DNA of 58,900 nucleotides, taken from Elusimicrobiota bacterium. Its GTDB lineage: Bacteria > Elusimicrobiota > Elusimicrobia > UBA1565. The notes under the pieces were generated by a model, which saw only the letters and a program-made list of their open reading frames with translations, searched no databases and had not been told where the DNA came from. Both the position numbers and the translations under genes were made by a program. The stretch spans positions 1 to 58,900 of the forward strand of contig JBDREN010000219.1 of NCBI GenBank assembly GCA_043819795.1. Reading direction: 5' to 3'. Each line of letters begins with the position of its first letter. Positions within the stretch are counted from its first letter, which is position 1. Of this stretch, positions 11,143-55,393 are shown piece after piece.

Positions 11143-11202
11143 GGGCGCATCCTCCTGACGGCTATAGTCGACACGATTCGGCCCGGCCGGTCAACCGTTG
11201 TG

Positions 11203-29505: not shown

Positions 29506-29533
29506 GGGCGTCAGTTGTTGACTTTGTTAACTA

Positions 29534-31047: not shown

Positions 31048-31210
31048 TAACTAAGTGGGCCGCGCGCGAGTCCCGACAGCAGACTCCTCTCGGAATTAGT
31101 TGACAAAGTTAACAACTGACGCCAGATGCCAGTGTCTGGCTTGCACGTGAAGGGACAAGAATTGCTATAGTCTAAGTACCTCCTCAGCCAATCTGATCCA
31201 GGAGACATAT

Positions 31211-31473: not shown

Positions 31474-31507
31474 AAAGAAGCCCTCGCTCGGTAGCGAGGG
31501 CTTCTTT
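31474..31507. terminator. Bidirectional intrinsic terminator
   Basis: AAAGAAGCCCTCGCT-CGGT-AGCGAGGGCTTCTTT between convergent genes. Confidence 0.8.
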
Positions 31508-31560
31508 GCTGAGATTTGGCTCCCCGATCGGGAGTAATAACTGACGCCGGCTTCGGCTGA

Positions 31561-33822
<2,262 letters not shown>

Positions 33823-34046
33823 GGCTTCGCCTCGATTTTGATGGATAGACCGGATGTTTTAGAAAACAGAAGGCTGCTTGGGAGGGCAGGATCAGGGGGG
33901 GGCAGGATTTTGCGTATCACGGCATGAGTATATAATAAATGAAAGCCCGACGGGCGGCGGGGTTTCGACCTTTCCCCCGGATTCACCTCCAGCTAAATGT
34001 TGGTCTGGAAGCTGAAAACGGAGGGGAGAAGTGAACTTTCCAAGCA

Positions 34047-34078
34047 GAAACCCCGATAGATCGGTCTATCGGGGTTTC
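34047..34078. terminator. Hairpin preceding repeat copy 1
   Basis: GAAACCCCGATAGA-TCGG-TCTATCGGGGTTTC, 14-bp stem. Confidence 0.6.
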
Positions 34079-34096
34079 CGGAAACATCAAGATTTT

Positions 34097-34596
34097 CTCC
34101 CCTGGACGAACCTAGCGGGGAACCAATTATATGTTGAAAAAAGCGTCAGAACTCGTTTCCTGGCCTTGCCGGATCTGGAGAATGCGCCCCTGGGGGCGCG
34201 TCTTCGGTACCTCAGGCGGGCTCGGGGCCTCACACTCGAAGAGCTGGCCAAATCGTGCGGGATCGGCCTCAATACGCTCTCCCGACTAGAGCGGGGGGAA
34301 ACGCCTTTCAATCCAGCAGTCATCGGACGGATTCTCGCCTATTTTGGCTCCGAAGCCCGGAAGGTATTCCCTGAGGGGGGAAAAACCCCTACGACCAGTT
34401 GATTCCCAGCGAGGACTTCGGAACCTGGCTGCGAAACTTCCGCCTTCGGAGGGGGATGCGCCAAAAGGACCTATCCGACACCCTGGGGGTTCATAAGGTC
34501 ACGGTCTGCCGGTACGAGAGGAACGGCCTTAAGCCGGACATCCGCGTTCTGAGGCGACTGAGAAGGAAGTTTAAGCTGGGTTCTGAGGCGCGCTAA
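34097..34596 (+). repeat. att-like site + tandem XRE-HTH reading frame, copy 1 (frameshift in a homopolymer run near 34380)
   Basis: CTCCCCTGGACGAACCTAGCGGGGAAC, then LGARLRYLRRARGLTLEELA...FGTWLRNFRLRRGMRQKDL...GVHKVTVCRYE; possible GTG start at 34031. Confidence 0.9.
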
Positions 34597-34639
34597 AGGG
34601 GCGGCCAGTTCATAGATGGCAAGTGATACAATCTCACCT

Positions 34640-35788
34640 ATGAGACACCGTTTGCGAAACATGCGTTTCGACCTAGGCGAACTCTCAGGCTCACTCGGCG
34701 ATCTAGGTACTTTTATCCCGCTTGCCGTTTCGATGATAAGCGTCTGCGGCCTCGACGCCGGGACAGTCCTGGTGTTTGCCGGGCTCTTCAACGTTTTGAC
34801 GGGAATCGCATTCAATCAACCCGTCCCGGTCCAACCGATGAAGGCCATCGCGGCCGTGGCGATTGCTGAGCAACTTGCGCCCGGAGAGATCGCCGCCGCG
34901 GGCTTCGTGTCGGGCGCCGTCGTTCTGGTCCTCGGACTCAGCGGCCTGGTATGTTGGGCGGAGAGGATTATCCCCCGCCCTGTGGTGCGCGGCATCCAGC
35001 TAGGCGTGGGGCTCAAGCTCGCGGCAAAGGGAATAGGGATGGTACTTGGACTTGACTGGCTGAGCCTTGATGGCCGGCTTGTCGCTGCAGTCGCGGGGGG
35101 GATAGTCCTGGCAACGAGCCAACGGAAGCGATTTCCCGCCGCCCTCGTCATCTTCGTCGCCGGGCTGGTGATTTTCCTCATTGGCCGGACGGATGTTCTT
35201 CATGGGCTATCTTGGGGGTGGGATGGTCCGCGACTAGTCCTCCCTGATTTGGCCCAATGGAAGACCGGGATCCTCCAGGGGGCCTTGCCCCAAGTGCCGT
35301 TGACGCTGCTGAACTCGGTCATCGCGGTTTGTGCCCTGAGCTCCGATCTCTATCCCGGCAAGGGCATCGGAACGCGTCCCATGGCTGTGAGCGTCGGGCT
35401 TATGAACGTCGGTGCTTGCCTGTTCGGAGCGATGCCCGCTTGCCATGGCTCGGGCGGTCTCGCCGGCCAGCATCGCTTTGGCGCGCGTACGGGCGGCAGC
35501 GTGGTCATGTTGGGAATTGGGAAAATCCTCATCGGAACTGCCTTCGGCGGCGCCGCGATGATCGTTCTCGCGGCCTATCCTGCTTCCATCCTGGGGATAC
35601 TCCTCGTGTTCGCGGGCCTCGAACTTACTTTGCCGGCCAGGGATTGCGTCGAACGCAATGCCTTCTTTGTTGCGGCCGCGACCGCGGGCGGGATCCTTGC
35701 CTTTAACACCTGGCTCGGCTTCATCCTGGGGCTATTTGCCGCCGCCTTTGTCCTCCGAGGCAGTAAGGATTCTATCGCCTCAGAGTAG
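34640..35788 (+). CDS. MOT1-family molybdate/sulfate transporter
   Basis: ELSGSLGDLGTFIP, PVQPMKAIAA, MPACHGSGGLAGQHRFGARTG. Confidence 0.9.
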   Translation: MRHRLRNMRFDLGELSGSLGDLGTFIPLAVSMISVCGLDAGTVLVFAGLFNVLTGIAFNQPVPVQPMKAIAAVAIAEQLAPGEIAAAGFVSGAVVLVLGLSGLVCWAERIIPRPVVRGIQLGVGLKLAAKGIGMVLGLDWLSLDGRLVAAVAGGIVLATSQRKRFPAALVIFVAGLVIFLIGRTDVLHGLSWGWDGPRLVLPDLAQWKTGILQGALPQVPLTLLNSVIAVCALSSDLYPGKGIGTRPMAVSVGLMNVGACLFGAMPACHGSGGLAGQHRFGARTGGSVVMLGIGKILIGTAFGGAAMIVLAAYPASILGILLVFAGLELTLPARDCVERNAFFVAAATAGGILAFNTWLGFILGLFAAAFVLRGSKDSIASE

Positions 35789-35845
35789 ATTTCCCAACCG
35801 CCTGGCGAATAGGGAAAGTTCGAAACCCAAACGCCTGCCCCGGAA

Positions 35846-36097
35846 TTCGGCCCCGAGGCCGAAAAGGTTTTTCCCAAGGGCCAAGACCTCTACGACCACC
35901 TGATCCCTACGGAGAGCTTCGGGGACTGGCTGCGGAACTTCCGCCTTCGGAGGGGGATGCGCCAAAAGGACTTGGCCGACGCTCTCGGGGTTCACAAGGT
36001 CACGGTCTGCCGTTATGAGAGGAACGGCCTCAAGCCGGAAGTACGCATTCTGAAACGGCTCAAGCGCAAGTTCGAGCTGGGAGCCCCTCGTATCTAG
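35846..36097 (+). repeat. Partial XRE-HTH repeat copy (linker + second HTH only)
   Basis: FGPEAEKVFPKGQDLYDHLIPTESFGDWLRNFRLRRGMRQKDLADALGVHKVTVCRYERNGLKP. Confidence 0.9.
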
Positions 36098-36346
36098 CCG
36101 AGACTTCTTAACGAAGATAAAATCCTCCAAGCTTTCAAATACCGCGCTATATTCGTCTATTGCTCGAATATAGTCAAGAATTCGCCATCCGACGGGTTCT
36201 TTCTACAGCTTCAACGAGCCAACTTCCTTTTCTCTTCCTGTAAGTCTTCAATACGCTCCATTGGCGCGATAACCAACCCCAATTTCGGCATTCGCCCGAA
36301 TCGCGACACTTTGTCGCGCCCCCGGCACCTTCCCAGGCAGATCGTG

Positions 36347-36590
36347 TCATTCGACGATCTGCCAGTGCCCGCCCTTGTCCGGTCCGACACGGCGACGTAG
36401 TTTGCGTCGCTTTAGCGTTGATAGATTTTTCTCAACGGCCCGCGTGCTGATTCCCAGCTTCTTAGAGAGAACTGATATCGTAATCCGCTTGTCCCGTCGA
36501 ATGAGCCCGAGAATCTTGGCTCCGGTTTCTCCCAACTTTTCTCCCAACCTTTCTCCGAACCGCTCCGAACTCTTCTCCGAACCGCCTTGA
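36347..36590 (-). pseudogene. Orphan C-terminal winged-HTH fragment (Fic/RecG-C-like tail)
   Basis: GSEKSSERFGERLGEKLGE tetrapeptide repeats, ILGLIRRDKRITI..LGISTRAVEKNL..RVGPDKGGHW; no credible start. Confidence 0.7.
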
Positions 36591-36592
36591 CT

Positions 36593-36760
36593 CGGGGAAT
36601 GCGCCAGAAGGACCTCGCCGACGCCCTGAGAGTCCATAAGGTCACGATCTACCGCTACGAGAGGAATGGCCTCAAGTCGGACGCTCGCGTTCTGAGGCGG
36701 TTGAAAAGGAAGTTTGAGCTGGGAGCCGAACTGGATATCTTCTTTCGAAGCGAATCCTAA
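36593..36760 (+). repeat. Partial XRE-HTH repeat copy (second HTH only)
   Basis: RGMRQKDLADALRVHKVTIYRYERNGLKSDARVLRRLKRKFELGA. Confidence 0.88.
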
Positions 36761-37095
36761 GGTTTCGACTCGACGGCGGACAGACGTTTCTCGTGATCTT
36801 GGAGCTTGGCCTCATGCCCTTGCAGTTGATCGCCGTGGCTGAGCGCCTTGCGGTCGTAGGCCTCGGCCTTTCTCGCGAAAGCGTCGATCGCATTCATGAT
36901 GCGATCCACGTCGGCCTTCGTCGACATCGTTTCCTTGATCTGCCGGACATCAGCCTGAGTCTTGATCAGCTCAACGGCTACTCCTTCGATTTTCTTGTCA
37001 AGCTTGTTCTCAAGTCCGTTGAGCTTGATACCAAACTCATTTCCGAGCTTCTTCAAATCAGCCTTGGTGGCGGGAGCGCCGTCGTCGGACACCAT
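36757..37095 (-). CDS. Small coiled-coil hypothetical protein
   Basis: ATKADL and STKADV repeats, heptad pattern; TAAAAT 6 nt before ATG. Confidence 0.75.
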   Translation of the reverse strand: MVSDDGAPATKADLKKLGNEFGIKLNGLENKLDKKIEGVAVELIKTQADVRQIKETMSTKADVDRIMNAIDAFARKAEAYDRKALSHGDQLQGHEAKLQDHEKRLSAVESKP

Positions 37096-37165
37096 AAAGT
37101 CATTTTACATTGTCCCCCGAGGTTTGTGAAGGGCCCAAAGGCCCAAAGGCCCAAGCCAACAAGAC

Positions 37166-37199
37166 GAAAGAGCGATCCCCGAAAAAGGACCGCCCTTTC
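37166..37199 (-). terminator. Hairpin preceding repeat copy 2
   Basis: GAAAGAGCGATCC / GGACCGCCCTTTC; the two A-C mismatches become G-U pairs on the minus strand. Confidence 0.55.
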
Positions 37200-37220
37200 C
37201 TACATTATCGAGTCAAATTT

Positions 37221-37751
37221 CTCCCCTGGACGAACCTAACGGGGAACAAACTATCCGTCGAAAAAAGCGTCAGAACTCGTTTTCTGGCCCTCCCGAACCT
37301 CCGCGTAGCACCGCTCGGAACGCGTCTGCGCTACCTTAGAAAGCGCCGCGGCCTGACCCTGATGGAGCTGGCCCGGCGGACAGGCGTCAGCCACGGAGCG
37401 ATTTGCCGCTTAGAAAATGGGATGGTCCCGCTCGACCCGGCCCGCCTCGGCCGCATCCTGGCCTTTTTCGGCGACGACGCGCGGGAAGTGCTGCCCGACG
37501 GCGCCGACATCTACGACCACGTAATTCCCGTCAAGGACTTCGGGAGCTGGCTGCGCAACTTCCGGATGCGGAGGGGAATACCCCAAAAGAACCTGGCTGA
37601 AGCCCTGGGAGTCCACAAAGTCACGGTTTGCCGCTACGAGAAACACGGACTCAAGCCGGACGCTCGCATTCTGAAACGCCTCAGACGGCAGTTCAACCTG
37701 GGAGCCGGAGAGCCGCAGCCCAATCCACACAACTGTTATAATAGGAAATAG
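37221..37751 (+). repeat. att-like site + tandem XRE-HTH reading frame, copy 2
   Basis: CTCCCCTGGACGAACCTAACGGGGAAC; LPWTNLTGNKLSVEKSVRTRFLALP...LGTRLRYLRKRRGLT...GVHKVTVCRYE. Confidence 0.92.
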
Positions 37752-37753
37752 CC

Positions 37754-39178
37754 ATGGCCCGCAAACCCGGCATGGATGTCGCTCCGCTCCTGCGCCGAGG
37801 GGAGTCCGAGAAAGTCGAGTTCAAGGAGTCCTTCGGCCAAGCCGCCATTGAGACGATCTGCGCCTTCGCCAACGCCGCCGGCGGCACGTTGCTTATAGGC
37901 GTGACCGACAAGGGTATCCCCCGCGGCGTGCAGTCGGGCCCGGCGATACTTAAGGACTGGGCCAACCGGATCGCCCAAGGCACCGGCGTCCACCCTTCCA
38001 TCGTGACGCGACGGGAAAAGGGAAAACCGGTCGTCGTCATCCAGGTTCAGGAAAGCAAGATGAAGCCGGTCTTGTTCCACGGCCGGGCCTACAAGCGGGT
38101 AGGAAGCACGACCCGGCAGATGAGCCCCGAGGGACTGGCGCGCGTCGTCTTGGACGGCATGGGCGTCACCTGGGACGAGCTGCCGGAGACCCGCGCGCGC
38201 CTTAAAGACATCAGCGCCGCCAAGGTCAGGGAGTTCGTGCGGCTGGCCAACGAGACCGGCCGCAGGCCCATTCCGGGAAGAACGCCGGTCGCGGAGGTCC
38301 TTGAGAAGCTGAAGCTCGTCAAGGACGGCCATCCAGTCCGCGCGGCCGTCCTTTTATTCGGGAAAGACCCGAAGGGCTTCTATTCTCAGGCCTACATCAA
38401 GGCCGGCCGTTTCAGGTCCGACACCTTGATCGTGGACGACAGGGAGATCGAGGGCACGGTCTTCGAGCAGATCGACTCGGCCATGAATTATTTCCGCGAA
38501 CGCTTGATGACGCGATTTGAAAAGACGGAATACCCGCGGCGCAAGACGATCTGGGAATATCCTCTGAAGGCTCTGCGGGAGGCCGTCATCAACGCCGTCT
38601 GCCACCGGGACTACATCGGCACCGGTGCCGTCCAGATCCGCATCTATGACGACGAAACCTGGATTTGGAACCCCGGGAGCCTCCCCAAAGGGTGGTCGGT
38701 CGAAATGCTTAAGGAACCGCACCCTTCCAAGCCGAGGAACCGGCGCATCGCCGAGATTCTGTTTTATGCGGGCATCATTGAGGCTTGGGGCAGCGGGACC
38801 CGCGACATGATCCGTAGGGCCCTTGATCATGGGCTTTTAGAGCCGGTTTTCGATCAAGAACTGGACTTCAAGGTCGTTTTCAAGAAGTCGGCCAAAGTCA
38901 TTGCCCCCCATGATACCACCCATGTCACCACCCATGATACCACCCATGTCACCACCCATGTCGTCAAACTCCTAAGGGCCGCAGGGAAACCGCGCTCCCG
39001 GACGGAATTGCAAAAAATCTTGGGGCTCAGGAACCGCCGCTATTTTCAAAAGGTCTACTTGGCGCCGCTAGTAGAGGCGGGATGGTTGGCTATGACTCTA
39101 CCGGACAAGCCCCACAGCCGCAGGCAGCGCTACCGGACGACGTCCGCCGGCGCTAAACGACTAGAAACCGAGGAGTAA
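37754..39178 (+). CDS. Schlafen/AlbA_2 + HATPase-like (RecG-C) + winged-HTH protein
   Basis: GESEKVEFKE, CAFANAAGGTLLIGVTD, ALREAVINAVCHRDY, PRNRRIA, EAWGSG, PDKPHSRRQRY. Confidence 0.9.
   Translation: MARKPGMDVAPLLRRGESEKVEFKESFGQAAIETICAFANAAGGTLLIGVTDKGIPRGVQSGPAILKDWANRIAQGTGVHPSIVTRREKGKPVVVIQVQESKMKPVLFHGRAYKRVGSTTRQMSPEGLARVVLDGMGVTWDELPETRARLKDISAAKVREFVRLANETGRRPIPGRTPVAEVLEKLKLVKDGHPVRAAVLLFGKDPKGFYSQAYIKAGRFRSDTLIVDDREIEGTVFEQIDSAMNYFRERLMTRFEKTEYPRRKTIWEYPLKALREAVINAVCHRDYIGTGAVQIRIYDDETWIWNPGSLPKGWSVEMLKEPHPSKPRNRRIAEILFYAGIIEAWGSGTRDMIRRALDHGLLEPVFDQELDFKVVFKKSAKVIAPHDTTHVTTHDTTHVTTHVVKLLRAAGKPRSRTELQKILGLRNRRYFQKVYLAPLVEAGWLAMTLPDKPHSRRQRYRTTSAGAKRLETEE
38907..38962 (+). repeat. 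In-frame 12-bp tandem repeat (THDT/THVT)
   Basis: CCCATGATACCA and CCCATGTCACCA alternate, about 4.7 units. Confidence 0.9.
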
Positions 39179-39181
39179 GCA

Positions 39182-39463
39182 ATGAGACTGAAATTTGGAT
39201 TTGCCTCGTATCGGCCGGAACAATGGGAGCGCCTCCGTTCAATCTCGGAGGACAAGGACGATCTTGAAGACACTTACGACGAATGGCTGCCGGCCGCGCA
39301 AACCCGTTTCGAGGAGCTGAAGCGCTCCGGGACGGACATCGTGCAGGTCGAAGTGGATGTCGAAGATCTTGTCGGTTGGTGTCGAAGCCGAAACCTGAGT
39401 ATCAACGCCCAATCGCGCTCACAATTCGCCGCGCACAAACTGCGGGAACTGGACGCTGAATGA
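39182..39463 (+). CDS. Hypothetical protein (93 aa)
   Basis: GAGGAG SD, ATG; YRPEQWERL...DTYDEW...DVEDLVGWC...SRSQFA; coupled to next gene. Confidence 0.75.
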   Translation: MRLKFGFASYRPEQWERLRSISEDKDDLEDTYDEWLPAAQTRFEELKRSGTDIVQVEVDVEDLVGWCRSRNLSINAQSRSQFAAHKLRELDAE

Positions 39464-41169
39464 GGATTCTGCTCGTCGGATTGAGCTGTGTGGGCAAGAC
39501 GACGATCGGCCGGCTGCTCGGTGGTCGGCTCGGATGCCCTTTCTTCGATCTGGATGAGGAGGTCGAGCGGCATTTCGGCACTTCCATCCAGCGATTGCAG
39601 GCCCGATTTCTGACCGGCTATTCCTACCGGGCAGAGGTCGCCGTCGTCCTGCGGCGCATCACCGCCCAGAGCGGGAACTGCGTGATCGCGCTTCCCCCAA
39701 GCGGCCTCCGGGACGCCTTCTTGCGTGTGGTTCGCAAGCTGGATTGCGTGACGATCGCTCTCGGGGACGCGCCGGAAAACATTCTCGCAAGGGCGACATT
39801 TTACGATATCGACTCCAGGCCGGTCGAGAAGAGCCTCACGAGAGAGGAGAAAATCCACTGTCTGAACGATATCAAGCAGGATATCGCATATTTCAATCGC
39901 TCCTATCGACGGGCCGACCTTCACGTGAGCCTTGCCGGTCTCGATGCGGAAGCCGCCGCTGAGAGGATTGAAGTCCTGCTGGCGCGCCCAACTCCTCCAA
40001 GCCGGGCGCAAGCGGCGGCCGGCCTCGGCAAACTGCGGCCGCCGCGCTCCCGCAGGAGAACCAGGAGAGTGCGGAAGGATACGGGCGAGAGGATCTATCA
40101 GTTCAGGGTTTGGCTGGAGTGGGAAAGCGAAGTCTGGCGGACGGTCGAGCTCCGCGATAGGCAGACCTTGGGATATCTTCACCGCGCGATTCAAACGGCA
40201 TACGACTGGGGTAACGACCACCTGTACGCCTTCTTTTTGAGCGGCAAGTACTGGGACGAGAAAACGTGCTACGTCTCGGACCGTCAAATCGGGATCGAAG
40301 CCGAGGACGGCTTGGGCAGCGGGATGCGCCAGGCGGAATCCGCGCGATTGGACCGGCTTCGACTCCGGCGCGGCAAGCTCTTAGTCTACCTGCTCGATTA
40401 TGGCCGTAGGTGGCGGCACCGGATCAAGCTTCTGGAAATCGCCCCGGCTCAGGCGGGAGAAGACTATCCGCGGATTACGGAGGAATTCGGCGAGGCGCCT
40501 GAGCAATACCCGAACCTAGAAGAGAGCGGCGACCCGCGTCCGAGCGAGAGGGTTCTCCTGAGCCGGTTGGGCCCCGCGGCGCCCCTCGCCAAGAAGGCCA
40601 GGTTGGAGCTCAAGAACGCCGTCCTCCAGCAACCCTCGCGCGGACGGCTCCTGAGGGCATACCGGCTGACGACGGAGTTGTCGGCCGTCTGCGGTAAACA
40701 CAAGGGCATGACCGGCCTCCTCGACGAGTTCCTGCGGGACAGGCTTCGAGCATGGTTGGGCAAACTCCAAAAGAACCTAGCAGATGAGGGCTTGATCGAA
40801 GAGGCATCCTCCATCGGTCCCGCTTGGCCCTTTCTTGGTACGGCAGGGATGCTTTTAACGGGCAGGGCCCAAATCCTTGCCGATGCCGGATGGGTCCAGG
40901 AAGCCCGCCGGCAGGTCCGCGAGATAGAGGAGAAGTTCGCTGGAGATTGGGCGCCTCGCGTCCTATCCGGCAAGGCCCTCGAAGCCTTCGGGGATCTTGC
41001 CGCCGCCGAGGCGCTTTATCGCCGATGCCTCAAGGACCTGGAGACCGCGAAGGAGGTGCGAAACCGCCGCTACTATCGCCACGCCACGCTGCGGAGCCTT
41101 ATCTCCGTGCGTAGGCGGCTCGGCAAGAAGGCAGAGGCCGGAGCCTTGCAGGCTTCCGCATCCCCGTGA
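39460..41169 (+). CDS. Fusion: shikimate-kinase-like P-loop + pRiA4b ORF-3-like domain + TPR-like C-terminus
   Basis: ILLVGLSCVGKTTIG..FFDLD; VWRTVEL..TLGYLHRAIQTAYDWGNDHLYAF..YLLDYGRRWRH; GDLAAAEALYRRCL. Confidence 0.8.
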   Translation: MRILLVGLSCVGKTTIGRLLGGRLGCPFFDLDEEVERHFGTSIQRLQARFLTGYSYRAEVAVVLRRITAQSGNCVIALPPSGLRDAFLRVVRKLDCVTIALGDAPENILARATFYDIDSRPVEKSLTREEKIHCLNDIKQDIAYFNRSYRRADLHVSLAGLDAEAAAERIEVLLARPTPPSRAQAAAGLGKLRPPRSRRRTRRVRKDTGERIYQFRVWLEWESEVWRTVELRDRQTLGYLHRAIQTAYDWGNDHLYAFFLSGKYWDEKTCYVSDRQIGIEAEDGLGSGMRQAESARLDRLRLRRGKLLVYLLDYGRRWRHRIKLLEIAPAQAGEDYPRITEEFGEAPEQYPNLEESGDPRPSERVLLSRLGPAAPLAKKARLELKNAVLQQPSRGRLLRAYRLTTELSAVCGKHKGMTGLLDEFLRDRLRAWLGKLQKNLADEGLIEEASSIGPAWPFLGTAGMLLTGRAQILADAGWVQEARRQVREIEEKFAGDWAPRVLSGKALEAFGDLAAAEALYRRCLKDLETAKEVRNRRYYRHATLRSLISVRRRLGKKAEAGALQASASP

Positions 41170-41480
41170 AGCCGGAAGGTCAAAAGCGCCTCACGAAAAA
41201 GGAGAAGAGCCACTACCTAAACGAGATCAAGAAAGATATTACGTTTTTCAAGAAAACCTACCGGCGGGCCGATCTCCAGGCGGACATCACCGGTCTCGAC
41301 GCAGAGGCCGGCGCGGAGATGCTTGAAGGGCTGTTGGCCCGCCAGGGGCCGCCGGCCCCGGCCGGTCGTGAGCGGCAGGCGGTCCGGACGGGATTGGGCG
41401 AGGAGTCGGCGGGATCCGGCCGTGCGTCCGCCGAGGCCCGTATCGACTGGAGCCGGCGCCGGGCAGCTGAAAGTCGCTGA
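41166..41480 (+). pseudogene. Fragment paralogous to the kinase C-terminus of 39460..41169
   Basis: KRLTKKEKSHYLNEIKKDITFFKKTYRRADLQADITGLDAE vs KSLTREEKIHCLNDIKQDIAYFNRSYRRADLHVSLAGLDAE. Confidence 0.75.
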
Positions 41481-41551
41481 AGGCAAATGAAACGATCTTA
41501 TCCGGCAGAGAAAAGGAAGGTTTCGCCGTAGACCCGGCACAAGACTGTCCC

Positions 41552-42139
41552 ATGCCCGTGACTTACCGGAATCGTAAGAGGTACCTGTACTACCTGCGGC
41601 GCAAAGCCGCGAAGAACGGCAAGCAACGGTATTTCTTTTCCCGAAAACCCATCGGCGATCCCGTAGAGGAAATTCCCGCAGGCTTCGAGATTGTTGAGAG
41701 CGTCAACGCAGTGGTCTCACTGCGCAAGATCGCCGCCCCGGTCATCCCGGCCGCTGAGATTGGAAAGGTCGAGTCCGTTCTAAAGCTCTACCGGCATCTC
41801 GAGTACTACAAAGCAGAGGCCCGGAAGAGGGATATCGTCGTCTATGAACGGTTGGGCGCTTTGAGCAGAGCCTTCCTCAGCGGATTGAGTGGGCGGCCGC
41901 ACGGACCGGTTTCCGAGTTGGAGAGCCGGCCCCTAGATCCGGGAAAGAACGCCCGCTATGAGCCCGTGATGCGCTTTCGCCTGGTGGATGCGAAAGCGAG
42001 AACCTACACGGTTGAGCGGATGTGCTATCGCTCGAGCGTGGACGGATGGCTTTCGCTGCATGATCTAGGCCCGCTTTCGGCCCTGGCGAAACGCTATCTT
42101 CCCCACCTTGGAAGGGAATCCTTCTTCGAGCTCTGCTAA
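41552..42139 (+). CDS. Hypothetical protein (195 aa)
   Basis: MPVTYRNRKRYLYYL..GKQRYFFS..IPAGFEIVES..YEPVMRF..LPHLGRESFFEL; protein-like composition. Confidence 0.75.
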   Translation: MPVTYRNRKRYLYYLRRKAAKNGKQRYFFSRKPIGDPVEEIPAGFEIVESVNAVVSLRKIAAPVIPAAEIGKVESVLKLYRHLEYYKAEARKRDIVVYERLGALSRAFLSGLSGRPHGPVSELESRPLDPGKNARYEPVMRFRLVDAKARTYTVERMCYRSSVDGWLSLHDLGPLSALAKRYLPHLGRESFFELC

Positions 42140-42158
42140 GGACGCGGAAAAACCTCCT

Positions 42159-42524
42159 ATGGGACATCGGTGTAGAATCTGCGGAAGAAATCGGCCGAAT
42201 GAGAAATTCTCGGGGATCGGCCACAGAAGTCACCTCTGCAAGACTTGCTCCAAACTGCCGGCGGAGGATAGAAATGCGGTCGATCAAGAGAACGAGATCT
42301 TCGGGTATCTCAAGCAGTCAAACATCTCTGGAAGAAATCTCCAACGGCTCAAGAAGCTCTCTACCTCATCCGACGGCAAGAGCGCGGAACTGGCCGCCAT
42401 TGTCCTCGAAATCGGTTCCGTAAAGCCCCACAAGCGAAGGCGTCTAAAGTTCCTGGCAAGGAACCGCCGGGACCTGCTGGTTAAACTCAAAGAGACAGGC
42501 TTGATTTTCGCTCATCAATATTGA
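42159..42524 (+). CDS. Hypothetical protein with N-terminal Cys/His cluster
   Basis: GHRCRICGRNRPNEKFSGIGHRSHLCKTC; QSNISGRN; KPHKRRRLKFL. Confidence 0.75.
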   Translation: MGHRCRICGRNRPNEKFSGIGHRSHLCKTCSKLPAEDRNAVDQENEIFGYLKQSNISGRNLQRLKKLSTSSDGKSAELAAIVLEIGSVKPHKRRRLKFLARNRRDLLVKLKETGLIFAHQY

Positions 42525-42529
42525 GACCC

Positions 42530-42763
42530 ATGAAGTTCACGAAGAAGCAGGGACAGTACTTGGCTTTCATCTACAACTACACGAAGATAAACGGCCATCC
42601 TCCGGCGCAACGAGATATGCAGTATTATTTCCGAGTGACTCCGCCCTCGGTTCATCGGATGGTTCTTGCCCTGGAGGAGGGGGGCCTGATCAGAAGGGAG
42701 CCTGGTGCGCCCAGATCGATTTGGGTGCTTGTTTCTCCGGAGGAGTTGCCGTACTTGGAATGA
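42530..42763 (+). CDS. Stand-alone LexA-type winged-HTH DNA-binding protein
   Basis: FTKKQGQYLAFI..GHPPAQRDM..FRVTPPSVHRMVLALEEGGLIRREPGAPRSI; no peptidase domain. Confidence 0.85.
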   Translation: MKFTKKQGQYLAFIYNYTKINGHPPAQRDMQYYFRVTPPSVHRMVLALEEGGLIRREPGAPRSIWVLVSPEELPYLE

Positions 42764-42869
42764 CCTGCCGCTTCAAAGTCAATGTGCGAAAAAGGGGGGG
42801 CAGGCTGGATTCGAACCGAAGACGCAATACAAGCTGCCTTTCGCGCTCGACCAGACGATCGATACGAAA

Positions 42870-42909
42870 TCAAAAAGGCATTTCTTCCGAAAAAGAAATG
42901 CCTTTTTGA
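42870..42909. terminator. Hairpin preceding repeat copy 3
   Basis: TCAAAAAGGCATTTCTT-CCGAAA-AAGAAATGCCTTTTTGA, perfect 17-bp stem. Confidence 0.75.
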
Positions 42910-42924
42910 CTACCGCGTACAAAG

Positions 42925-43401
42925 TGGCTCCCCTGGACGAACCTAGCGGGGAACCAATTATGTATCGAAAAAAGCGTCACAACTTGTTTTCTCGCCCTGC
43001 CGGATTTGCAGAAAGCGCCCCTTGGCGCGCGGTTGCGCTACTTACGGCGGAGCCGGGGGCTAACCATCGGGGAGTTGGCCGAGGCGAGCGGGGTAGGACG
43101 CAATACGCTCTCGCGGCTGGAGCGCGGGGTTACGCCCTTTAATCCGGCCGTTGTTGGGCGTATTCTGGCTCAGTTTGGCCCCGAAGCTCGGAAAGTTTTT
43201 GCCGAGGACCCCTACGAGCACCTAATACCTACTGAGAGTTTCGGCGCGTGGTTGCGGAACTTCCGGATGCGGATGGGGATGCGCCAGAAGGACTTGGCAG
43301 AAGCCCTCGGGGTCCACAAAGTTACGGTCTGCCGCTACGAGAGACATGGATTCATGCCGGATGTCCGCGTTCTAAGGCGGCTCAAGGAGAAATTTCCGTA
43401 G
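42925..43401 (+). repeat. att-like site + tandem XRE-HTH reading frame, copy 3
   Basis: TGGCTCCCCTGGACGAACCTAGCGGGGAAC; WLPWTNLAGNQLCIEKSVTTCFLALPDLQKAPLGARLRYLRR...GVHKVTVCRYE; in-frame TGA at 42907 and no start before the site. Confidence 0.92.
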
Positions 43402-43442
43402 CGGGATGAGTCGGGAGAGCGTATAAGGGGTATATCTTCCCC

Positions 43443-43471
43443 TTGTATTTTTAAAGGTTACCTATTAAAAT
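43443..43471 (+). promoter_or_regulatory. Sigma70-type promoter, leaderless start
   Basis: TTGTAT-17 nt-TAAAAT, ATG 6 nt downstream, no SD. Confidence 0.65.
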
Positions 43472-43477
43472 ACAATA

Positions 43478-44644
43478 ATGATAATCCCCCGCGACGCCGG
43501 CGCGACGCTGCGCTCGTTCCTCGGGACTTTCCCCGTGGTTCTCATCGTCGGGCCGCGGCAATCCGGCAAGACCACGCTCGTGCGTAAGCAGCTGCCGTCG
43601 CTGCCCTATCTCGATCTTGAGAATCCGACGGATCGAGCCCGTCTTGAGGAGGATCCGGAGGGCCTCTTGACGGGGCATTCGAGGGGGGTGATCATCGATG
43701 AGGTCCAACGCTGGCCCGAGATCTTCCCGGTCCTGCGCGGCGCCGTGGACCGCAAGCGCCGTCTGGGAGCCTTCGTCCTCACCGGCTCCGCCGCACCCTC
43801 CCTCATGAAGCAGGCCGGCGAAACCCTGGCGGGACGTGTCGGGATGCTGGAGCTGACGCCGTTCGGATGTTCGGAACTCGCCCGGCGGCCGGGTTGGCTC
43901 AAGCAGCGTTGGTTCTGGGGCGGCTTCCCTCCTCTGTACGCCCTGTCGGTTCTCGCACGCAAGACCACCTGGCTCGACCAGTACGTCTCCACCTTTCTCG
44001 AACGGGACATCCCGTCTTTCGGGATACGCGTCCCGCCTGTGCGGCTGCGCAATCTTTGGACGATGCTGGCCCATTTGCACGGCCAGTTGCTCAACGTTTC
44101 GACTTTGGCCCGTTCTCTGGACCTGACGTCTCCGGCCGTTTCCCACCATCTGGACATCCTGGAAGGCGCGTTCATGATCCGGCGCCTGCGCCCCTATCAC
44201 GCCAACATCCGCAAGCGGCTGGTCAAGAGTCCCAAGCTCTACATCCGTGACTCGGGGCTGCTTCATCATCTGGCGGGGCTCCGTCGGCCGCAGGACCTCG
44301 ATGCCTGGCCCGGGCGGGGAAGTTCCTGGGAAGGCTTCGTCATCGAGGAGCTGATCCGCCGCGCCCGCCGCCGGTGGCCTGCGCCCGGCTTCCATTTCTG
44401 GGGTACTCAGGCGGGGGCGGAAGCGGACCTGATCGTCGAGAACGGACGCGATCGGCGGGTATTCGAGATCAAGGCCGGGGCGACCCTGTCGTCGAAGAGC
44501 CTCGCCGGAGTGCGGCAGTGCATGAAGGATCTGCGTCTCAAGCGCGGGTTCGTGATCTATCGCGGAGAGCGGGCTTTGACTCTCGGAGCCGGACTCAGAG
44601 CGGTGCCATGGCGCGCCATCGAAGCGGGCGGCTGGCCTTCATAG
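43478..44644 (+). CDS. AAA_14 ATPase with DUF4143 (PD-(D/E)xK-like) C-terminus
   Basis: GPRQSGKT, IIDEVQ, LTGS, ETLAGR, GGFP, KSPKLYIRDSG, EADLIV..FEIK. Confidence 0.93.
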   Translation: MIIPRDAGATLRSFLGTFPVVLIVGPRQSGKTTLVRKQLPSLPYLDLENPTDRARLEEDPEGLLTGHSRGVIIDEVQRWPEIFPVLRGAVDRKRRLGAFVLTGSAAPSLMKQAGETLAGRVGMLELTPFGCSELARRPGWLKQRWFWGGFPPLYALSVLARKTTWLDQYVSTFLERDIPSFGIRVPPVRLRNLWTMLAHLHGQLLNVSTLARSLDLTSPAVSHHLDILEGAFMIRRLRPYHANIRKRLVKSPKLYIRDSGLLHHLAGLRRPQDLDAWPGRGSSWEGFVIEELIRRARRRWPAPGFHFWGTQAGAEADLIVENGRDRRVFEIKAGATLSSKSLAGVRQCMKDLRLKRGFVIYRGERALTLGAGLRAVPWRAIEAGGWPS

Positions 44645-44701
44645 CTCCCAAGTCGCAACCAGAGCCATGGGGAAAAATGCCTCGAAAGGCAACCAGCGAT
44701 G

Positions 44702-44732
44702 AATTCGTTCCCCCGTTCTGCCAGGGGAGCCA
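44702..44732 (-). repeat. Inverted, internally shortened copy of the att-like site
   Basis: Reverse complement reads TGGCTCCCCTGGCAGAACGGGGGAACGAATT. Confidence 0.8.
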
Positions 44733-44749
44733 TTTCAAAAAGCAGAACG

Positions 44750-44769
44750 AACGGCCCGAAAGGGCCGTT
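44750..44769. terminator. Hairpin between the inverted site and copy 4
   Basis: AACGGCCC-GAAA-GGGCCGTT followed by TATTCTT. Confidence 0.65.
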
Positions 44770-44786
44770 TATTCTTGGACTTTTAA

Positions 44787-44841
44787 TTCGTTCCCCGATA
44801 GGTTCTGCACATTCCGGCGGACGAACCTAGCGGGTAACGAA
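44787..44841. other. Two-armed (attP-like) inverted-repeat site
   Basis: TTCGTTCCCCGATAGGTTC-17 nt-GAACCTAGCGGGTAACGAA; arms match at 17 of 19 positions. Confidence 0.7.
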
Positions 44842-45327
44842 ATAAGTATCGAAAAAAGCGTCAGATCTTGTTTTGTGGCGCTCCCGGACCTCGGTACCGC
44901 GCCGCTCGGCGTCCGTCTGCGCTACCTTAGAAAGCGCCGCGGCCTGACCCAGTTCGAGTTGGCCCGCCACACAGGCGTGAGCCACGGAACGATCAACCGC
45001 TTGGAAATTGGGAAGGCTCCGCTGGACCCGGCCCGTCTCGGCCGCGTCCTGGCCTTTTTCGGCGAAGCCGCCCGCGAAGTGCTGCCCGGCGGAGCCGACG
45101 TCTACGACCACGTTATCCCCGTCAAAGACTTCGGAAGCTGGCTGCGCAACTTCCGGATGCGACGGGGAATACCCCAAAAGGACCTGGCCGAGGCCCTGGG
45201 AATTCACAAAGTCACGGTCTGCCGCTACGAGAGGCAAGGGCTCCAGCCGGCAGCCCGCATTCTGAAACGGCTCAGGCGGAAATTCAAGCTGGGAGCCAAG
45301 CTCAACTTCGTTCCCCATTCCCAATAG
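44819..45327 (+). repeat. att-like arm + tandem XRE-HTH reading frame, copy 4
   Basis: GGACGAACCTAGCGGGTAAC; TNLAGNEISIEKSVRSCFVALPDL..LGVRLRYLRKRRGLT..GIHKVTVCRYE; most similar to copy 2. Confidence 0.92.
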
Positions 45328-45482
45328 GCCCCCGTCACATTCTTGTGAATCGAGGGGTCAGGCCGGAAGGGCTGTCCCAGCGATTGGGGGAGCTGTGGGC
45401 GGCGGAAAGCGCCGTCCACGGCATCCCCACGAGCGGCGCGATTCACATGCCAATCAATCCCCTTCCTCTACTCATCACCTCA

Positions 45483-45589
45483 ATCGCAATCCGTTTGTCG
45501 CGTCGAATGAGTCCGAGAATCTTGGCTCCGGTTTCTCCCAACCTTTCTCCGAACCTCTCCGAACTCTTCTCCGAACCGCCTTGGCTCGG
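45483..45589 (-). repeat. Second copy of the winged-HTH fragment at 36477-36595
   Basis: CGTCGAATGAG(C/T)CCGAGAATCTTGGCTCCGGTTTCTCCCAAC...CCGAACCGCCTTG shared; one fewer 12-bp unit. Confidence 0.85.
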
Positions 45590-45706: not shown

Positions 45707-46423
45707 TCATGACCCATGGGCGGGTCTTTCTGGAGCTTCCGAACCAGGCCGCTTCGTTATGACACAAAGTGTCTTCCAGGCACTGGCCACTTCATTCAAA
45801 ATGACCTGTAGGAGCGGGATAAACGCAATCGGCGCAACCACCAGGAGAATTAACGGTACGGCATCTGTCTTCCAGAGCCGAATGCCCACCAATATGAGCG
45901 CCCATCCAGGGACAAGAAAGTAGATCAAGATTGCGCTCGCCTTGAGGAGCACGTAGTAGGCTGCGCTTGTCCACCACAGCCAGTCCGGACACGCAGCCGC
46001 AGTTGCGAAAAACTGGTACTTGCCTCGTAGACTTTGAGCCAACGGCGCCACTCGGATCACACTCGGCTGGCAGAGCATGTCGAAAAATTCGCGCGGATGA
46101 GGCTTTTCGGCTACTTCCGACAGTGAGCCAATGTAGCCCTCAGCCAGCTTTCGCGCCCGAACCTGCTGAGCGTGCGCGGATGCGAATGCAACGCTCAGGA
46201 TTATCAAAAGGGAGAACAAGACGGGATACAGAGTTTCCGGTGAGACCGAACCCAAGCCGAGAGGCAGTGCTATTCCTTGAGTTTGTTGCCCAGCGCCGGT
46301 CAACTGCAAGAGCGTGAATACCACCACCGTCATGAGGGTAAGCCAAAGACGGTTGGCAACCCGCGCTTGAGTCGAGACGGCAGACGCAAGATCCTTGATG
46401 TGCTGGTTTTGATTTTGAGTCAT
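45707..46423 (-). CDS. Hypothetical multi-pass membrane protein
   Basis: About 4 hydrophobic helices; ATG 1 nt after the upstream stop; last gene of the operon. Confidence 0.75.
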   Translation of the reverse strand: MTQNQNQHIKDLASAVSTQARVANRLWLTLMTVVVFTLLQLTGAGQQTQGIALPLGLGSVSPETLYPVLFSLLIILSVAFASAHAQQVRARKLAEGYIGSLSEVAEKPHPREFFDMLCQPSVIRVAPLAQSLRGKYQFFATAAACPDWLWWTSAAYYVLLKASAILIYFLVPGWALILVGIRLWKTDAVPLILLVVAPIAFIPLLQVILNEVASAWKTLCVITKRPGSEAPERPAHGS

Positions 46424-46424
46424 C

Positions 46425-47225
46425 CTATGCCTTCTCTCGCGGAGGTTCGCGGCCAATCAGTATCAGATACGAATCGAAGAATACCCAAGATAGATGGGCA
46501 AGATAGCGCGCTAGGCCCGTTCGTGTCTTATAATAGCGGGGCTTAACGTTCTTTAGGTGTTCCACGGATTCCTTGAAGGCAGATCTCTCTTCGATAATCG
46601 ATAAGAGCCGGTTGCACGAGGTCTCAAGGAAGGGAATATCAAGCGGCTTGTGTTTCCCCTGGAATGCGCCGGAAAGATGCTTCGCGAAGGCTTCGCCGGA
46701 TTGGGAGGGAATCTCTTTCCCCTCCTCTGAGAATAGGTACGCGGGGGAACGTCTTGCCCGGAAGGCGACGTAATGGGCGTCTCGGCTTGGGAGCCGTCCG
46801 ATGGCCAGTGGTCTGAAAAACCTCGAATGCAAAAGGACCCGGCCGGTGAGGTATGCGGAATTAAGCTTCGGCTGGGTGTGGAACTCCGGGGCCGCATAGT
46901 AGACCACGTTTCCGGCGCTTTCGAGATCGATGAGTAGATCGTGTTGGTCTGAATGCCGCAACGGCCGGAGATGCATGCGGTAATAGGGCTCTCCAAAGAC
47001 GGGCCATTCATTCGCGGTAGATCGACTCAGGTGATCCGAAAGCTTAAATTGCAGGTACAGTGGATACCCGACGAGAGGAATCTGGACATCGAAACCGCCA
47101 CCAGGCTGTCCCTCCTCTCTCAAAGATGGGAATACCGGTGCTCCGATGACTGGGCCAAGAATGCCGGAGGCCAATTCCTGAGTAAGAGCATAGCCGTAGG
47201 AAAACTCAGAGATCAGCGGCTGCAT
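46425..47225 (-). CDS. Hypothetical protein, possible PD-(D/E)xK nuclease
   Basis: SEFSYGY..PSLREEG..GGFDV..LYLQFK pattern (E..D..QxK). Confidence 0.6.
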   Translation of the reverse strand: MQPLISEFSYGYALTQELASGILGPVIGAPVFPSLREEGQPGGGFDVQIPLVGYPLYLQFKLSDHLSRSTANEWPVFGEPYYRMHLRPLRHSDQHDLLIDLESAGNVVYYAAPEFHTQPKLNSAYLTGRVLLHSRFFRPLAIGRLPSRDAHYVAFRARRSPAYLFSEEGKEIPSQSGEAFAKHLSGAFQGKHKPLDIPFLETSCNRLLSIIEERSAFKESVEHLKNVKPRYYKTRTGLARYLAHLSWVFFDSYLILIGREPPREKA

Positions 47226-47229
47226 TGAG

Positions 47230-49959: not shown

Positions 49960-51176
49960 TTGCCGCCTCTTCGCCGGCCCTGGCGAGTCCCTTTGTCGCG
50001 TTTACGGCGGGTCGGCCCCTTTAAGCTCTCCGGCTGTTTCGGTCCAGACAGGGCTTTCACCTCACGCCGCAATTCGGCTCTCAATTCGGCCTCGCTTGGA
50101 AGGTGCAGTTTGTAGCGGCTGGCGAAAATCGTTCGTTGCTGGTCCGGCCCGAGCGTGTATCGAACCACGGCGTTGTTCTTATCCGCGCAAAGAATCAGCC
50201 CGAGCGTCGGATTGTCTCCGGCGGAGCGGCGCTCGCGGTCGTAGTAATTGACGTAGAGCTGGAGTTGGCCGAGATCCTGGTGCGTAAGCTTCCCGGTTTT
50301 TAGGTCAATGATCACATAGCACTTGAGGACGGCGTGGTAGAAGACCAAATCTATGTAGAAGTGGTCGCCCTCCAGTGTGAGCCGCTCCTGCCGAGCGACG
50401 AAGGCGAAACCTTTGCCGAGTTCGAGCAAAAAAGTCTGAAGGTTGCTGATTAGCGCTTGTTCAAGCTCCGATTCAACCAGTTTTGACGACTCCGGCATGC
50501 CCAAAAACTCCATGACCACCGGGTCCTTAAACACATCCGCGGGGCGACGCACCTCGTGGCCCTTTGTCGCGAGTCTCAGCAAACCTTTCTTGTCGCGGCT
50601 CAACGCGAGACGTTCATAGAGGAGGCTGTTGATCTGCCGCTCCAACTCACGCGAGGACCAGCTGTTTTTAATCGCCTCGATCTCGTAAAAGGCGCGTTTG
50701 TCCGTTTCGTCAGCCTTCAGAAGCATCCGGTAGTGAGTCCAGGACAGATTCGGATGCAGAAGGCCCGGTTTCCATGATTTCCGAGGCGCCGCGTCGGATT
50801 TTCCACGCGGCGCGTGGAGAATGCTCTGCTCCCCGCGAGCCTCTGGCCCCGTCAATTCTCCACGCACCGCGTGGAGAATCTCATTCGATGGGAGAAGTCC
50901 CGGATAGGCTCGGTAGAACTGGACCATGTAAAACAGGTTCTGGATTGAGTAGCCCGCTCCATAGCTCTTGGTCATCTTCCGAGAAAGTCCCTCGATTAAT
51001 TTCCTGCCGTAATCAGCCCGTGCTTGCCCTCCTTGCTCCTCCTCGACGATCTCGCGGCCGATGAGCCAGTTGGATACCACCTGTGCGGTGTTAACGGACC
51101 GCGCTGCGCCGGCGCGGGCAGATTCGATGATCTCCCGAATGCGGTCATAGAGGGGCAAGGGCTTCTTCCTTTTCAT
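49956..51176 (-). CDS. YhcG/DUF1016 PD-(D/E)xK nuclease family protein
   Basis: WLIGREIVEEEQ..RADYG, LSWTHY, KDP..EFL, LELGKGFAFVARQ, IDLVFY, IDLK, GQLQLYVNY. Confidence 0.93.
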   Translation of the reverse strand: MKRKKPLPLYDRIREIIESARAGAARSVNTAQVVSNWLIGREIVEEEQGGQARADYGRKLIEGLSRKMTKSYGAGYSIQNLFYMVQFYRAYPGLLPSNEILHAVRGELTGPEARGEQSILHAPRGKSDAAPRKSWKPGLLHPNLSWTHYRMLLKADETDKRAFYEIEAIKNSWSSRELERQINSLLYERLALSRDKKGLLRLATKGHEVRRPADVFKDPVVMEFLGMPESSKLVESELEQALISNLQTFLLELGKGFAFVARQERLTLEGDHFYIDLVFYHAVLKCYVIIDLKTGKLTHQDLGQLQLYVNYYDRERRSAGDNPTLGLILCADKNNAVVRYTLGPDQQRTIFASRYKLHLPSEAELRAELRREVKALSGPKQPESLKGPTRRKRDKGTRQGRRRGGK

Positions 51177-55206: not shown

Positions 55207-55393
55207 CTTTTTTGGCCTCCGCGCTGACGGACAATTCGATCATCACCTGCCAATCCGCCGCCTTAAGCTTGCCTGATGCGAGCTTTTCGCGAAGCGACTT
55301 AAGCTGCTTCTCGGAAAACAGGCGCTTCTTCTTTAGGTCGGCGAGGATTTGTTCAGAGAGCAGTGCATCGGGAGTCTTATCTTCGGCGGTCAT
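55199..55393 (-). CDS. Small hypothetical protein (64 aa)
   Basis: Overlaps the helicase stop (ATGA) and the ATPase start; GGAGG SD; helical, GKLKAADW. Confidence 0.75.
   Translation of the reverse strand: MTAEDKTPDALLSEQILADLKKKRLFSEKQLKSLREKLASGKLKAADWQVMIELSVSAEAKKDV

Follow-up and report, generated by a model that had tools for sequence, protein, structure and literature searches.

What kind of element leaves the same unit again and again between genes that have nothing in common? The question is raised by a contig of an Elusimicrobiota bacterium (GenBank assembly GCA_043819795.1, contig JBDREN010000219.1; here C219), in which a hairpin, a conserved site and two XRE helix-turn-helix (HTH) domains recur between positions 34047 and 45589. 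C219 is the whole window that we analysed, 58.9 kb long, and is one contig of a 5.0-Mb genome that is 90% complete. The original prediction took this array for an integron-like platform and for no named system. We favor another reading, to which we give a probability of about 80%: sequence comparison suggests that the array consists of islands of a large serine recombinase (LSR), stacked one after another at the 3′ end of a tRNA-Asn gene, and that the full repeats are left junctions of these islands, each with the severed tail of a recombinase. The odd repeat would then be explained as the footprint of repeated tRNA-targeted integration.

The repeat units mirror the end of a recombinase gene

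Using BLAST and repeat finding, we located four full units, starting at 34094, 37218, 42925 and 44809, that are 66–84% identical to each other across 460–490 nt. Two partial units (starting at 35846 and 36594) begin abruptly in the linker or in the second HTH domain (HTH2) and carry no attachment (att) site. Of the six att-site repeats in the original prediction, all are real as repeats but only four have the site, and the two partial copies are likely scars; what the prediction described for the units, namely a site, hairpins on the left and a pair of XRE HTHs, was found. A seventh, more distant unit is found on contig C114.

The genome has a single match to PF07508 (Pfam Recombinase), a 556-aa LSR with resolvase, recombinase and Zn-ribbon domains on contig C117, and a second LSR, cut by the contig end, is found at tRNA-Gln on contig C61. 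The last codons of the C117 LSR (…GYPLGT-RWLRRLDSN…) run into the antisense strand of tRNA-Asn, and the 14 bases that encode GYPLG are the inverted repeat of the arms in the four full units, with matches at 13, 12, 13 and 14 of 14 positions. Only six 14-mers in the 5-Mb genome come within one mismatch of the unit arm, four of which are the LSR's own arm and three array copies. Each full unit is ordered as the tRNA-Asn 3′ end in antisense, a TC crossover and the 14-bp arm, and the att geometry is arm, 10 nt, TC, 10 nt, arm, a symmetric 50-bp attP. An attP of about 50 bp is the usual size for serine integrases. Because the crossover lies at TC, the units read CTCCCC but the host tRNA reads CTCCGG. 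The layout of arms and crossover fits the half-site model for serine integrases as outlined in PMC5499577. On C114, the crossover is TG, as it is for the C61 LSR at tRNA-Gln, and the arm matches the C61 and C117 LSR arms equally (10/14). When we examined 40 LSR loci, 29 ended at a tRNA-like core, and this arm was present at –24 in only 4 of these 29, all members of the C117 clade (43–100% identical).

The junctions, all on the plus strand, follow this order with variations on their left sides. At junction 1 (34094..34123), the core leads into a putative TC crossover at 34098-34099 and a P′ arm at 34110-34123 (13/14), preceded by hairpin 1 (34047..34078, minus strand), a likely terminator on the tRNA-sense strand; the left hairpins of the units fold on the minus strand, which is this tRNA-sense strand. 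Junction 4 (37166..37247) has a hairpin, the core, a putative TC crossover at 37222-37223 and a P′ arm at 37234-37247 (12/14). Junction 5 (42868..42954) has a hairpin, a partly P-like left half, a TC crossover at 42929-42930 and a P′ arm at 42941-42954 (13/14); its hairpin recurs before junctions in the genomes G050 and G020, and in locus L082 about 120 nt upstream of the junction. Junction 6 (44790..44838) is an attP-type hybrid with a P-like arm at 44790-44803, a TC crossover at 44813-44814 and a P′ arm at 44825-44838 that matches the LSR arm at 14/14 positions; its left half is one base short and its inner bases are those of the host tRNA-Asn. The copy at 44809 had been noted for a variant left side, and it does differ, but the variant is a second inverted arm. 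The most plausible reading of junction 6 is that the newest element here adjoins the right end of an older one. A fifth hairpin-plus-core junction that the original prediction overlooked, junction 0 (31474..31525), combines a terminator hairpin and the tRNA-3′-end core with no P′ arm and no tail, and its hairpin is similar to two hairpins ahead of tRNA-Met fragments on contig C80.

Several smaller features were seen beside these junctions. An inverted core (44718-44735) with a short P′-like arm occupies 44702-44735 on the minus strand, at a distance of 80 nt from junction 6 on its left side. An antisense tRNA-like T-arm fragment (42793..42817, plus strand) lies left of junction 5 and appears to be a relic of another insertion, and a similar relic precedes the matching junction in G050. 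At 33930-34090 we saw a TATAAT-like box, a segment that folds strongly and, in frame with tail 1, a GTG that has a good ribosome-binding site; 33935-34125 folds better than shuffled sequences (z –3.8) and gave chance-level Rfam matches only, and no Rfam family was found at E≤1 over 28-58.9 kb. One public contig matches the window from 33967 on, with a different left flank.

Synteny points to a tRNA-Asn gene beyond the window as the likely target

A tRNA search of the window found none. GC content drops from 0.685 left of 29.5 kb to 0.57–0.62 across the island, and a Trypsin-PDZ protease identified by Pfam (28408..29505, plus strand) is the host gene that anchors the left side, far from the tRNA. 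In three relatives, this protease is convergent with tRNA-Asn on one contig, at distances of 1.8 kb (G008), 10.5 kb (G005) and 18.4 kb (G001), and the intervening genes are unrelated, so that cargo differs among relatives as had been predicted; in a fourth (G003), three tails lie between the protease and the end of the contig. Synteny places the tRNA-Asn target beyond the right end of the window, and with the LSR found at tRNA-Asn on C117, the forecast of a recombinase and a tRNA outside the window is borne out to this extent. Where a tail and a tRNA share a contig in relatives, the tail points toward the tRNA 3′ end in 17/17 loci, and where the core of the junction is visible it is that of the neighboring tRNA in 11/11 cases (Asn TC, His GT, Met TG). 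With arms that mirror the LSR arm and cores that match the tRNA, the earlier idea that the unit is a site-specific recombination junction and that the array grows by accretion holds. An LSR element at a tRNA 3′ end is recognisable by its parts: the domain set is at the tRNA-proximal end and a ~50-bp attP is split, with the LSR on a contig other than that of the array.

Upstream of the C117 LSR (locus L037, 6622-10956), we saw an excisionase-like HTH_17 gene, a 262-aa open reading frame (ORF) and an IrrE/CapP-like peptidase. By eye, the 262-aa ORF resembles a replication-relaxation protein, and it has no family match. These genes are candidates for a recombination directionality factor (RDF) and for mobilisation genes. 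On C80, two repeats of a hairpin and a tRNA-Met 3′ half (at ~14100 and ~24800) suggest a second stacked island at tRNA-Met.

The two-HTH tail shares the reading frame of the recombinase

Four tails follow the sites on the plus strand: tail 1 (34094..34596), tail 4 (37218..37751), tail 5 (42925..43401) and tail 6 (44809..45327). Tails 4, 5 and 6 have an intact frame through linker, HTH and HTH, and tail 1 has a frameshift near 34385 that had been overlooked. The frameshift sits in a G6A5C4 run (34375-34395) that includes the slippery heptamer G GGA AAA, and a tail in G002 is broken at about the same place.

No start codon is conserved between the site and the first HTH domain (HTH1) in the tails, and tail 4 has no ATG, GTG or TTG at all in this interval. 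The HTH pair is read in the frame that the C117 LSR uses across the site. To describe the constraint on the tail we compared nonsynonymous (pN) and synonymous (pS) differences. In the 23-codon linker from site to HTH1, pN/pS is 0.42 and second codon positions are the least variable (4 of 23, versus 12 and 13 at the other positions), whereas pN roughly equals or exceeds pS in both of the other frames. In HTH1 pN/pS is 0.44, and in HTH2 pS is 0.47 and pN is 0.11; the many synonymous changes by which the copies had been called diverged are confirmed by this excess of synonymous over nonsynonymous differences. We then tabulated 42 site-bearing tails, leaving out cut or partial tails, duplicates and five without a recognisable site where one would be expected (L031, L080, L125, L128 and L129). 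Of these tails, 27/42 are in the C117 frame, 13/42 are shifted by one and 2/42 are off in the other direction. The shifted frame is that of the L202 LSR, which is 48% identical to the C117 LSR, has the same kind of arm and crosses the site in the shifted frame, and in P0007 an L202-like C-terminus is joined to a shifted-frame tail (12/21 identical). Shifted-frame tails had been considered as counter-evidence, which is weakened by the fact that a clade member, L202, uses that frame.

Natural fusions join the two parts. P0151 is a 677-aa protein of Resolvase, Recombinase, Zn ribbon, HTH and HTH, whose C-terminal 162 aa are 51% identical to the copy at 37218, and P0005 has the C-terminal 92 aa of an LSR and a tail in one ORF. 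The tails of P0151 and P0005 are 80% identical; their LSR bodies (P0151 compared with the family upstream of P0005) barely align. From the start-less but constrained linker, the LSR frame and the P0151 fusion, it follows that attP likely lies inside the LSR gene and that integration detaches a 160-aa tail. The LSR ORF runs through att and the other end holds an in-frame, constrained 3′ part, the arrangement expected of an Mx8-type integrase with attP inside its gene. The HTH pair is best read as the severed 3′ part of a recombinase gene and not as a free regulator. Because gene callers annotate the tails as free XRE regulators, the arrangement is easily missed.

In the structural model of the tail, two XRE domains stand behind a low-confidence linker (pLDDT 84 overall, about 50–68 for the first 30 residues), and a structure search with this model returned single XRE domains only, with no tandem arrangement among the matches listed, a lack that carries no weight as evidence. 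Variants in which a single site is followed by three or four consecutive XRE domains were seen in L081 (at 696 and 1155) and in P0001.

A proposed cycle of integration, and what weighs against it

In the model that we propose, the circular form of the element would carry a ~50-bp attP, with inverted arms GTTACCC...GGGTAAC around the TC crossover, inside the LSR gene, which would then encode a protein of about 710 aa, with the LSR body followed by W-L-P, a linker of 30 residues and two XRE HTHs. Integration would rebuild the tRNA end and leave the catalytic body on the tRNA side, reading into the tRNA antisense strand, and would shift the start-less tail to the far side. A full unit would thus be the left end (attR or a hybrid junction) of an LSR integrative element, made up of DNA from the host or from an earlier island, the core of the tRNA end, the P′ half of attP and the detached 3′ portion of the LSR gene. 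Later elements would enter at the same tRNA and push older ones outward, which would put the oldest on the left and the newest on the right; the newest element probably has its left end at tail 6, and its LSR would be the one on C117 if synteny links the two contigs correctly. Older members, which lack the LSR, would persist as 2–6 kb cis-mobilizable pieces. Deletions would have left the two partial tails, one with the end of the linker and HTH2 (35846..36097, plus strand) and one with HTH2 only (36594..36760, plus strand), both likely scars without an att site.

As for what the tail does, we see an even chance that it is an accessory DNA-binding module present on the circle, favoring integration or repressing the element, and lost automatically at integration, by analogy with the C-terminus of the Mx8 integrase. 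A more far-reaching proposal is doubtful: that recombination makes a switch, with the tandem XRE on the LSR only when attP is intact, and that LSR-less cassettes donate the module to unrelated LSRs through the shared frame and so reprogram them. If true, nature would have a modular way of retargeting serine integrases, and the cassettes would form a system without its own integrase.

A number of results weigh against the stacked-island model or parts of it. Contig-end BLAST found no overlap between C219 and C117. LSRs of the C117 clade (>50% identity) are present in only 2/61 genomes, and tails are commoner. Agreement with the C117 P half is limited to 11/24, 5/24 and 15/24 positions in the left halves of junctions 1, 4 and 5. 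In the C117 frame, seven phase-2 tails run into a stop directly behind the crossover, an in-frame ATG, TTG or GTG of their own is present in some tails, and in G070 the LSR, the core and the HTH pair are adjacent but not in one frame, so some members may be separate genes. P0151 is the only full-length fusion: we found none among 2,495 candidates, none in the top 150 representatives and only P0151 itself among 1,613. The body of P0151 falls outside the C117 clade, with 27% identity to the C117 LSR, and both P0151 and P0005 may be tandem-junction hybrids rather than products of a cognate circle. Finally, we found no excised circles or attP-spanning joints in low-depth contigs, none of which bridged a junction by 31 letters on both sides, a result that is no evidence either way.

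Members without a recombinase and alternative explanations

We also asked how widely the tails occur and how often an LSR accompanies them. At E≤1e-25, with nine candidates per genome scored, tails are present in at least 15 of 401 genomes of the phylum, nearly all of this order, and they occur in 17 metagenome loci. A scan of GTDB contigs with the tail gave one close locus of 6, and a search of viral_contigs confirmed no relatives among 66 candidates. The segments between the junctions of the window (34098-44812) contain no LSR by Pfam, and no recombinase or transposase lies inside the array, in line with the earlier statement that it has no integrase or transposase; insertion sequence (IS) genes flank it. 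Among the tail-to-tRNA intervals of relatives, 15/17 have no LSR, and in the remaining two the tRNA is occupied by an LSR from a different clade; in the G053 interval, 6 kb are outside the sequence examined. G050, a genome that is 99% complete, has two tails and no PF07508 match. The window also has the tandem, recombinase-less members of an accretion array of cis-mobilizable elements (CIMEs), with P′ arms intact and P halves degenerate or one base short. The LSRs may be missing simply because of decay after integration, that is CIME formation; G389 retains a P arm with about 17 LSR codons.

The strongest alternative, a tentative one that would refine the stacked-island model, is that the small members are not decayed full elements but dedicated non-autonomous cassettes moved in trans by an LSR. 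The rarity of LSRs in the tail-to-tRNA intervals and in G050 fits this idea, as do five tails in G441 that are 83–89% identical and have different neighbors, the junction-5 hairpin found near junctions in three other loci, and P′-hairpin-P micro-elements of 75–100 bp in L034, L035, L081 and G003. A right end made of a hairpin and TTGACRCGTCAA also speaks for it, since all 9 matches, from 4 of the 5 genomes searched, sit at a tail junction or flank a tRNA. On the other hand, the window has right ends of different kinds, most of them without a full P arm, the P arm with LSR codons in G389 looks like a deletion, MOT1 (see below) is present in G003 without flanking tails, and we saw no cassette with both ends that is common to two genomes, and no circles. 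The mixed left halves of the junctions (5–15/24 matches to P) do not distinguish decay from trans-mobility for the recombinase-less members of the window. If such cassettes exist, the cassette idea of the original prediction would hold, with the LSR and the tRNA in place of IntI and attI.

The TTGACRCGTCAA sequence is itself a palindrome. In L187-L195 (G050, G381, G429 and G441), the junction hairpin has TTGACA in its loop and is followed by TTGACRCGTCAA, 7–15 nt from the crossover, and the palindrome is a candidate operator for the tail. We had also considered it as the C-terminus of an LSR, but it is absent from the ends of 7 LSRs checked and the frame is not kept in His-type junctions; as a genome-wide repeat it was rejected, since it occurs only at junctions.

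It is unlikely that the tails belong to hijackers, LSR-less elements that would insert at the attL of any tRNA-targeting LSR, fuse their HTH pair to it in frame and retarget or activate it for their own ends. In favor of such a process, P0151 and P0005 have tails that are 80% identical on bodies that barely align, most tRNA-targeting LSRs in the order read the core in one of the two frames of the tails, and tails far outnumber the LSRs of the cognate clade. However, a cognate clade with mirror arms exists, in-frame hybrids follow passively because the frames are shared, just two such fusions are seen, one of them partial, and no operator for the tail is known.

We also regard it as improbable that the HTH pair is an independent repressor gene beside the att site, expressed from a non-canonical start or by translational coupling. 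Both domains fold like single XRE repressors (C.AhdI, HipB and ImmR; best Z 9.3), in G070 the pair lies behind the stop codon of the LSR and in a different frame, in-frame starts occur in some tails, and copy 1 has the upstream GTG with a good ribosome-binding site. Against this, no start is conserved, 40/42 tails are read from the crossover codon on in a frame used by an LSR, the linker is constrained and fused ORFs exist.

The least probable is an integron-like platform served by a tyrosine integrase, or else an array that arose mostly through homologous recombination of tails with each other: variable cargo and units that are direct repeats would fit either, and the first 45 nt of the copy at 37218 are closer to those at 34094 and 42925 (86% versus 75%) and further in closer to 44809, but the arms mirror the LSR arm, recombination between tails can neither create the att geometry nor remove the LSR alone, a simple pattern test found 0 pairs of attC boxes (RYYYAAC...GTTRRRY) at 5 junctions, and the tyrosine recombinase matches are on seven other contigs, with none on C219 (one tyrosine-integrase query) nor in Pfam of ORFs at 27.5-58.7 kb. 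The integron label is given up in favor of an LSR and the tRNA-Asn 3′ end, and the homologous-recombination anchor proposed with it survives as a possible secondary process only, the hint of mosaicism in the copy at 37218 being weak. The unit is not the end of an IS or prophage either, as the array contains no transposase and viral_contigs gave no confirmed relatives among 66 candidates.

Relation to known systems

Tandem accretion at a tRNA or tmRNA and an attP inside the integrase gene are already known, and the array itself is ordinary tRNA accretion; the unit is, in kind, the end of a family of LSR integrative elements, which corrects the earlier view that no named system applies. The ssrA islands of Dehalococcoides are alike in their LSR-driven accretion at a tRNA/tmRNA end. 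Here, in contrast, the target is tRNA-Asn (His, Met and Gln in relatives) with the crossover in the acceptor stem, compared with the tmRNA T-loop in Dehalococcoides, and the six-gene module of the ssrA islands is not present. According to PMC3146451, dsiB always overlaps attL, 15 islands lack the module and are integrase-less, and the C-termini of DsiB are divergent, whereas what is detached in our case is a conserved module of 160 aa with two HTHs. In CIMEs and integrative mobilizable elements (IMEs), decayed elements are pushed outward as a tRNA end is used for integration again and again, and integrase-less members keep att (PMC5704250); tycheposon islands likewise stack at tRNA ends (bioRxiv 10.1101/2020.12.28.424599). 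For the most part, CIMEs, IMEs and tycheposons rely on tyrosine integrases and leave behind partial tRNA repeats; in the present array, the shared core is ~6 nt and the visible repeat is a P′ arm with a coding tail.

SCCmec elements are cassettes stacked by LSRs, with recombinase-less members, and their target is rlmH. Here the target is a tRNA, and the C117 LSR scores 178 and 155 bits against the CcrB and CcrC models, far below the cut-off of 900, which places it outside the Ccr group. We know of no detached HTH tail in SCCmec. The Int of Mx8 is a phage tyrosine integrase. In our case an LSR serves non-phage islands, and tails accumulate in arrays. For Mx8, attP is inside int, and integration swaps the 3′ end of the gene and alters the behavior of the enzyme, according to PMC6070905. 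Engineered fusions of integrase and RDF offer a further parallel, since a C-terminal fusion can flip the directionality of a serine integrase (PMC5737554). Such fusions are synthetic and permanent, whereas the fusion here would be natural and made and broken by recombination; for the tail, an RDF role is only a possibility.

An HTH-pair tail split from an LSR was not described in the literature searched, a search that did not extend to supplements, so a prior description is possible. What appears to be new is that the detached part is a folded two-domain module that is also joined to unrelated LSRs; its function is predicted only. The older suggestion for DsiB, that the LSR is complete only on the circle, becomes testable, as the missing part would be a defined two-HTH module with a natural fusion. 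For a little-studied phylum, the analysis also gives the precise att sites with their crossover dinucleotides, and an LSR clade cognate to them. If the tail controls directionality or site choice, it would be a built-in alternative to a separate RDF and a natural counterpart of engineered fusions of LSRs and DNA-binding domains. A detachable and apparently swappable two-HTH recombinase module is a part worth testing.

Cargo and flanking genes

The cargo calls made originally (MOT1, a winged HTH (wHTH) remnant, AlbA_2 with its followers, AAA_14 and a defence operon) hold up in family searches. Between junctions 0 and 1, a gene for a monomeric isocitrate dehydrogenase (idh; 31561..33822, minus strand) lies in a segment with a GC content of 0.60 compared with 0.67 for the genome, and idh was found in 4/17 genomes of the family; since junction 0 is present to its left, idh is probably cargo too. 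Junction 1 and tail 1 are followed by an MFS_MOT1 molybdate transporter by Pfam (34616..35788, plus strand), a gene that is 92% identical, with different neighbors, in the matching island of G003. Between the two partial tails is the C-terminal remnant of an AlbA_2-HATPase_c_4-wHTH gene (36347..36595, minus strand), which ends like the AlbA_2/HTH_24 gene in L173. Remnants of the end of one such AlbA_2-HATPase-wHTH gene were seen at both 36477-36595 and 45483-45589, 85% identical and each beside a tail. A 112-aa coiled-coil-like ORF with no family match (36757..37095, minus strand) precedes junction 4, and the block behind tail 4 (37754..42763, plus strand) encodes AlbA_2-HATPase-Fic_C, a fusion of SKI and pRiA4 ORF3, small ORFs and a LexA-type HTH. 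An AAA_14-DUF4143 ATPase (43478..44644, plus strand; PADLOC PDC-S01) lies between tail 5 and junction 6. The cargo of the putative newest element (45707..58302, minus strand) consists of a type III restriction-modification (RM) system, YhcG, an SMC-like ATPase and a DrmD-like SNF2 helicase; at 47230-58302, YhcG is inserted between the methyltransferase and the restriction endonuclease of the type III RM, and the SMC-like ATPase and the DrmD-like SNF2 helicase precede. Several cargo pieces are matched letter for letter by low-depth contigs of one public sample, which is possibly the source sample and not independent support.

In the left flank, an ISNCY/IS5-like IS (29507-31123) looks complete, with 30-nt terminal inverted repeats and a transposase that passes the NCBIfam ISNCY cut-off, and a fragment of IS630 (58299-58655) lies in the right flank. 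Just right of tail 6, at 45344-45448, we saw a hairpin-rich element of ~105 bp with terminal inverted repeats that resembles a miniature inverted-repeat transposable element. A partial inverted copy is at 58699-58763, on the far side of the defence operon, two copies are on contig C133, and the element also comes after the tail in metagenome locus L077. Far to the left of the array, a pair of 48-nt inverted repeats (7393-7440 and 11201-11248) is 90% complementary and 3.8 kb apart, and each repeat is hairpin-like.

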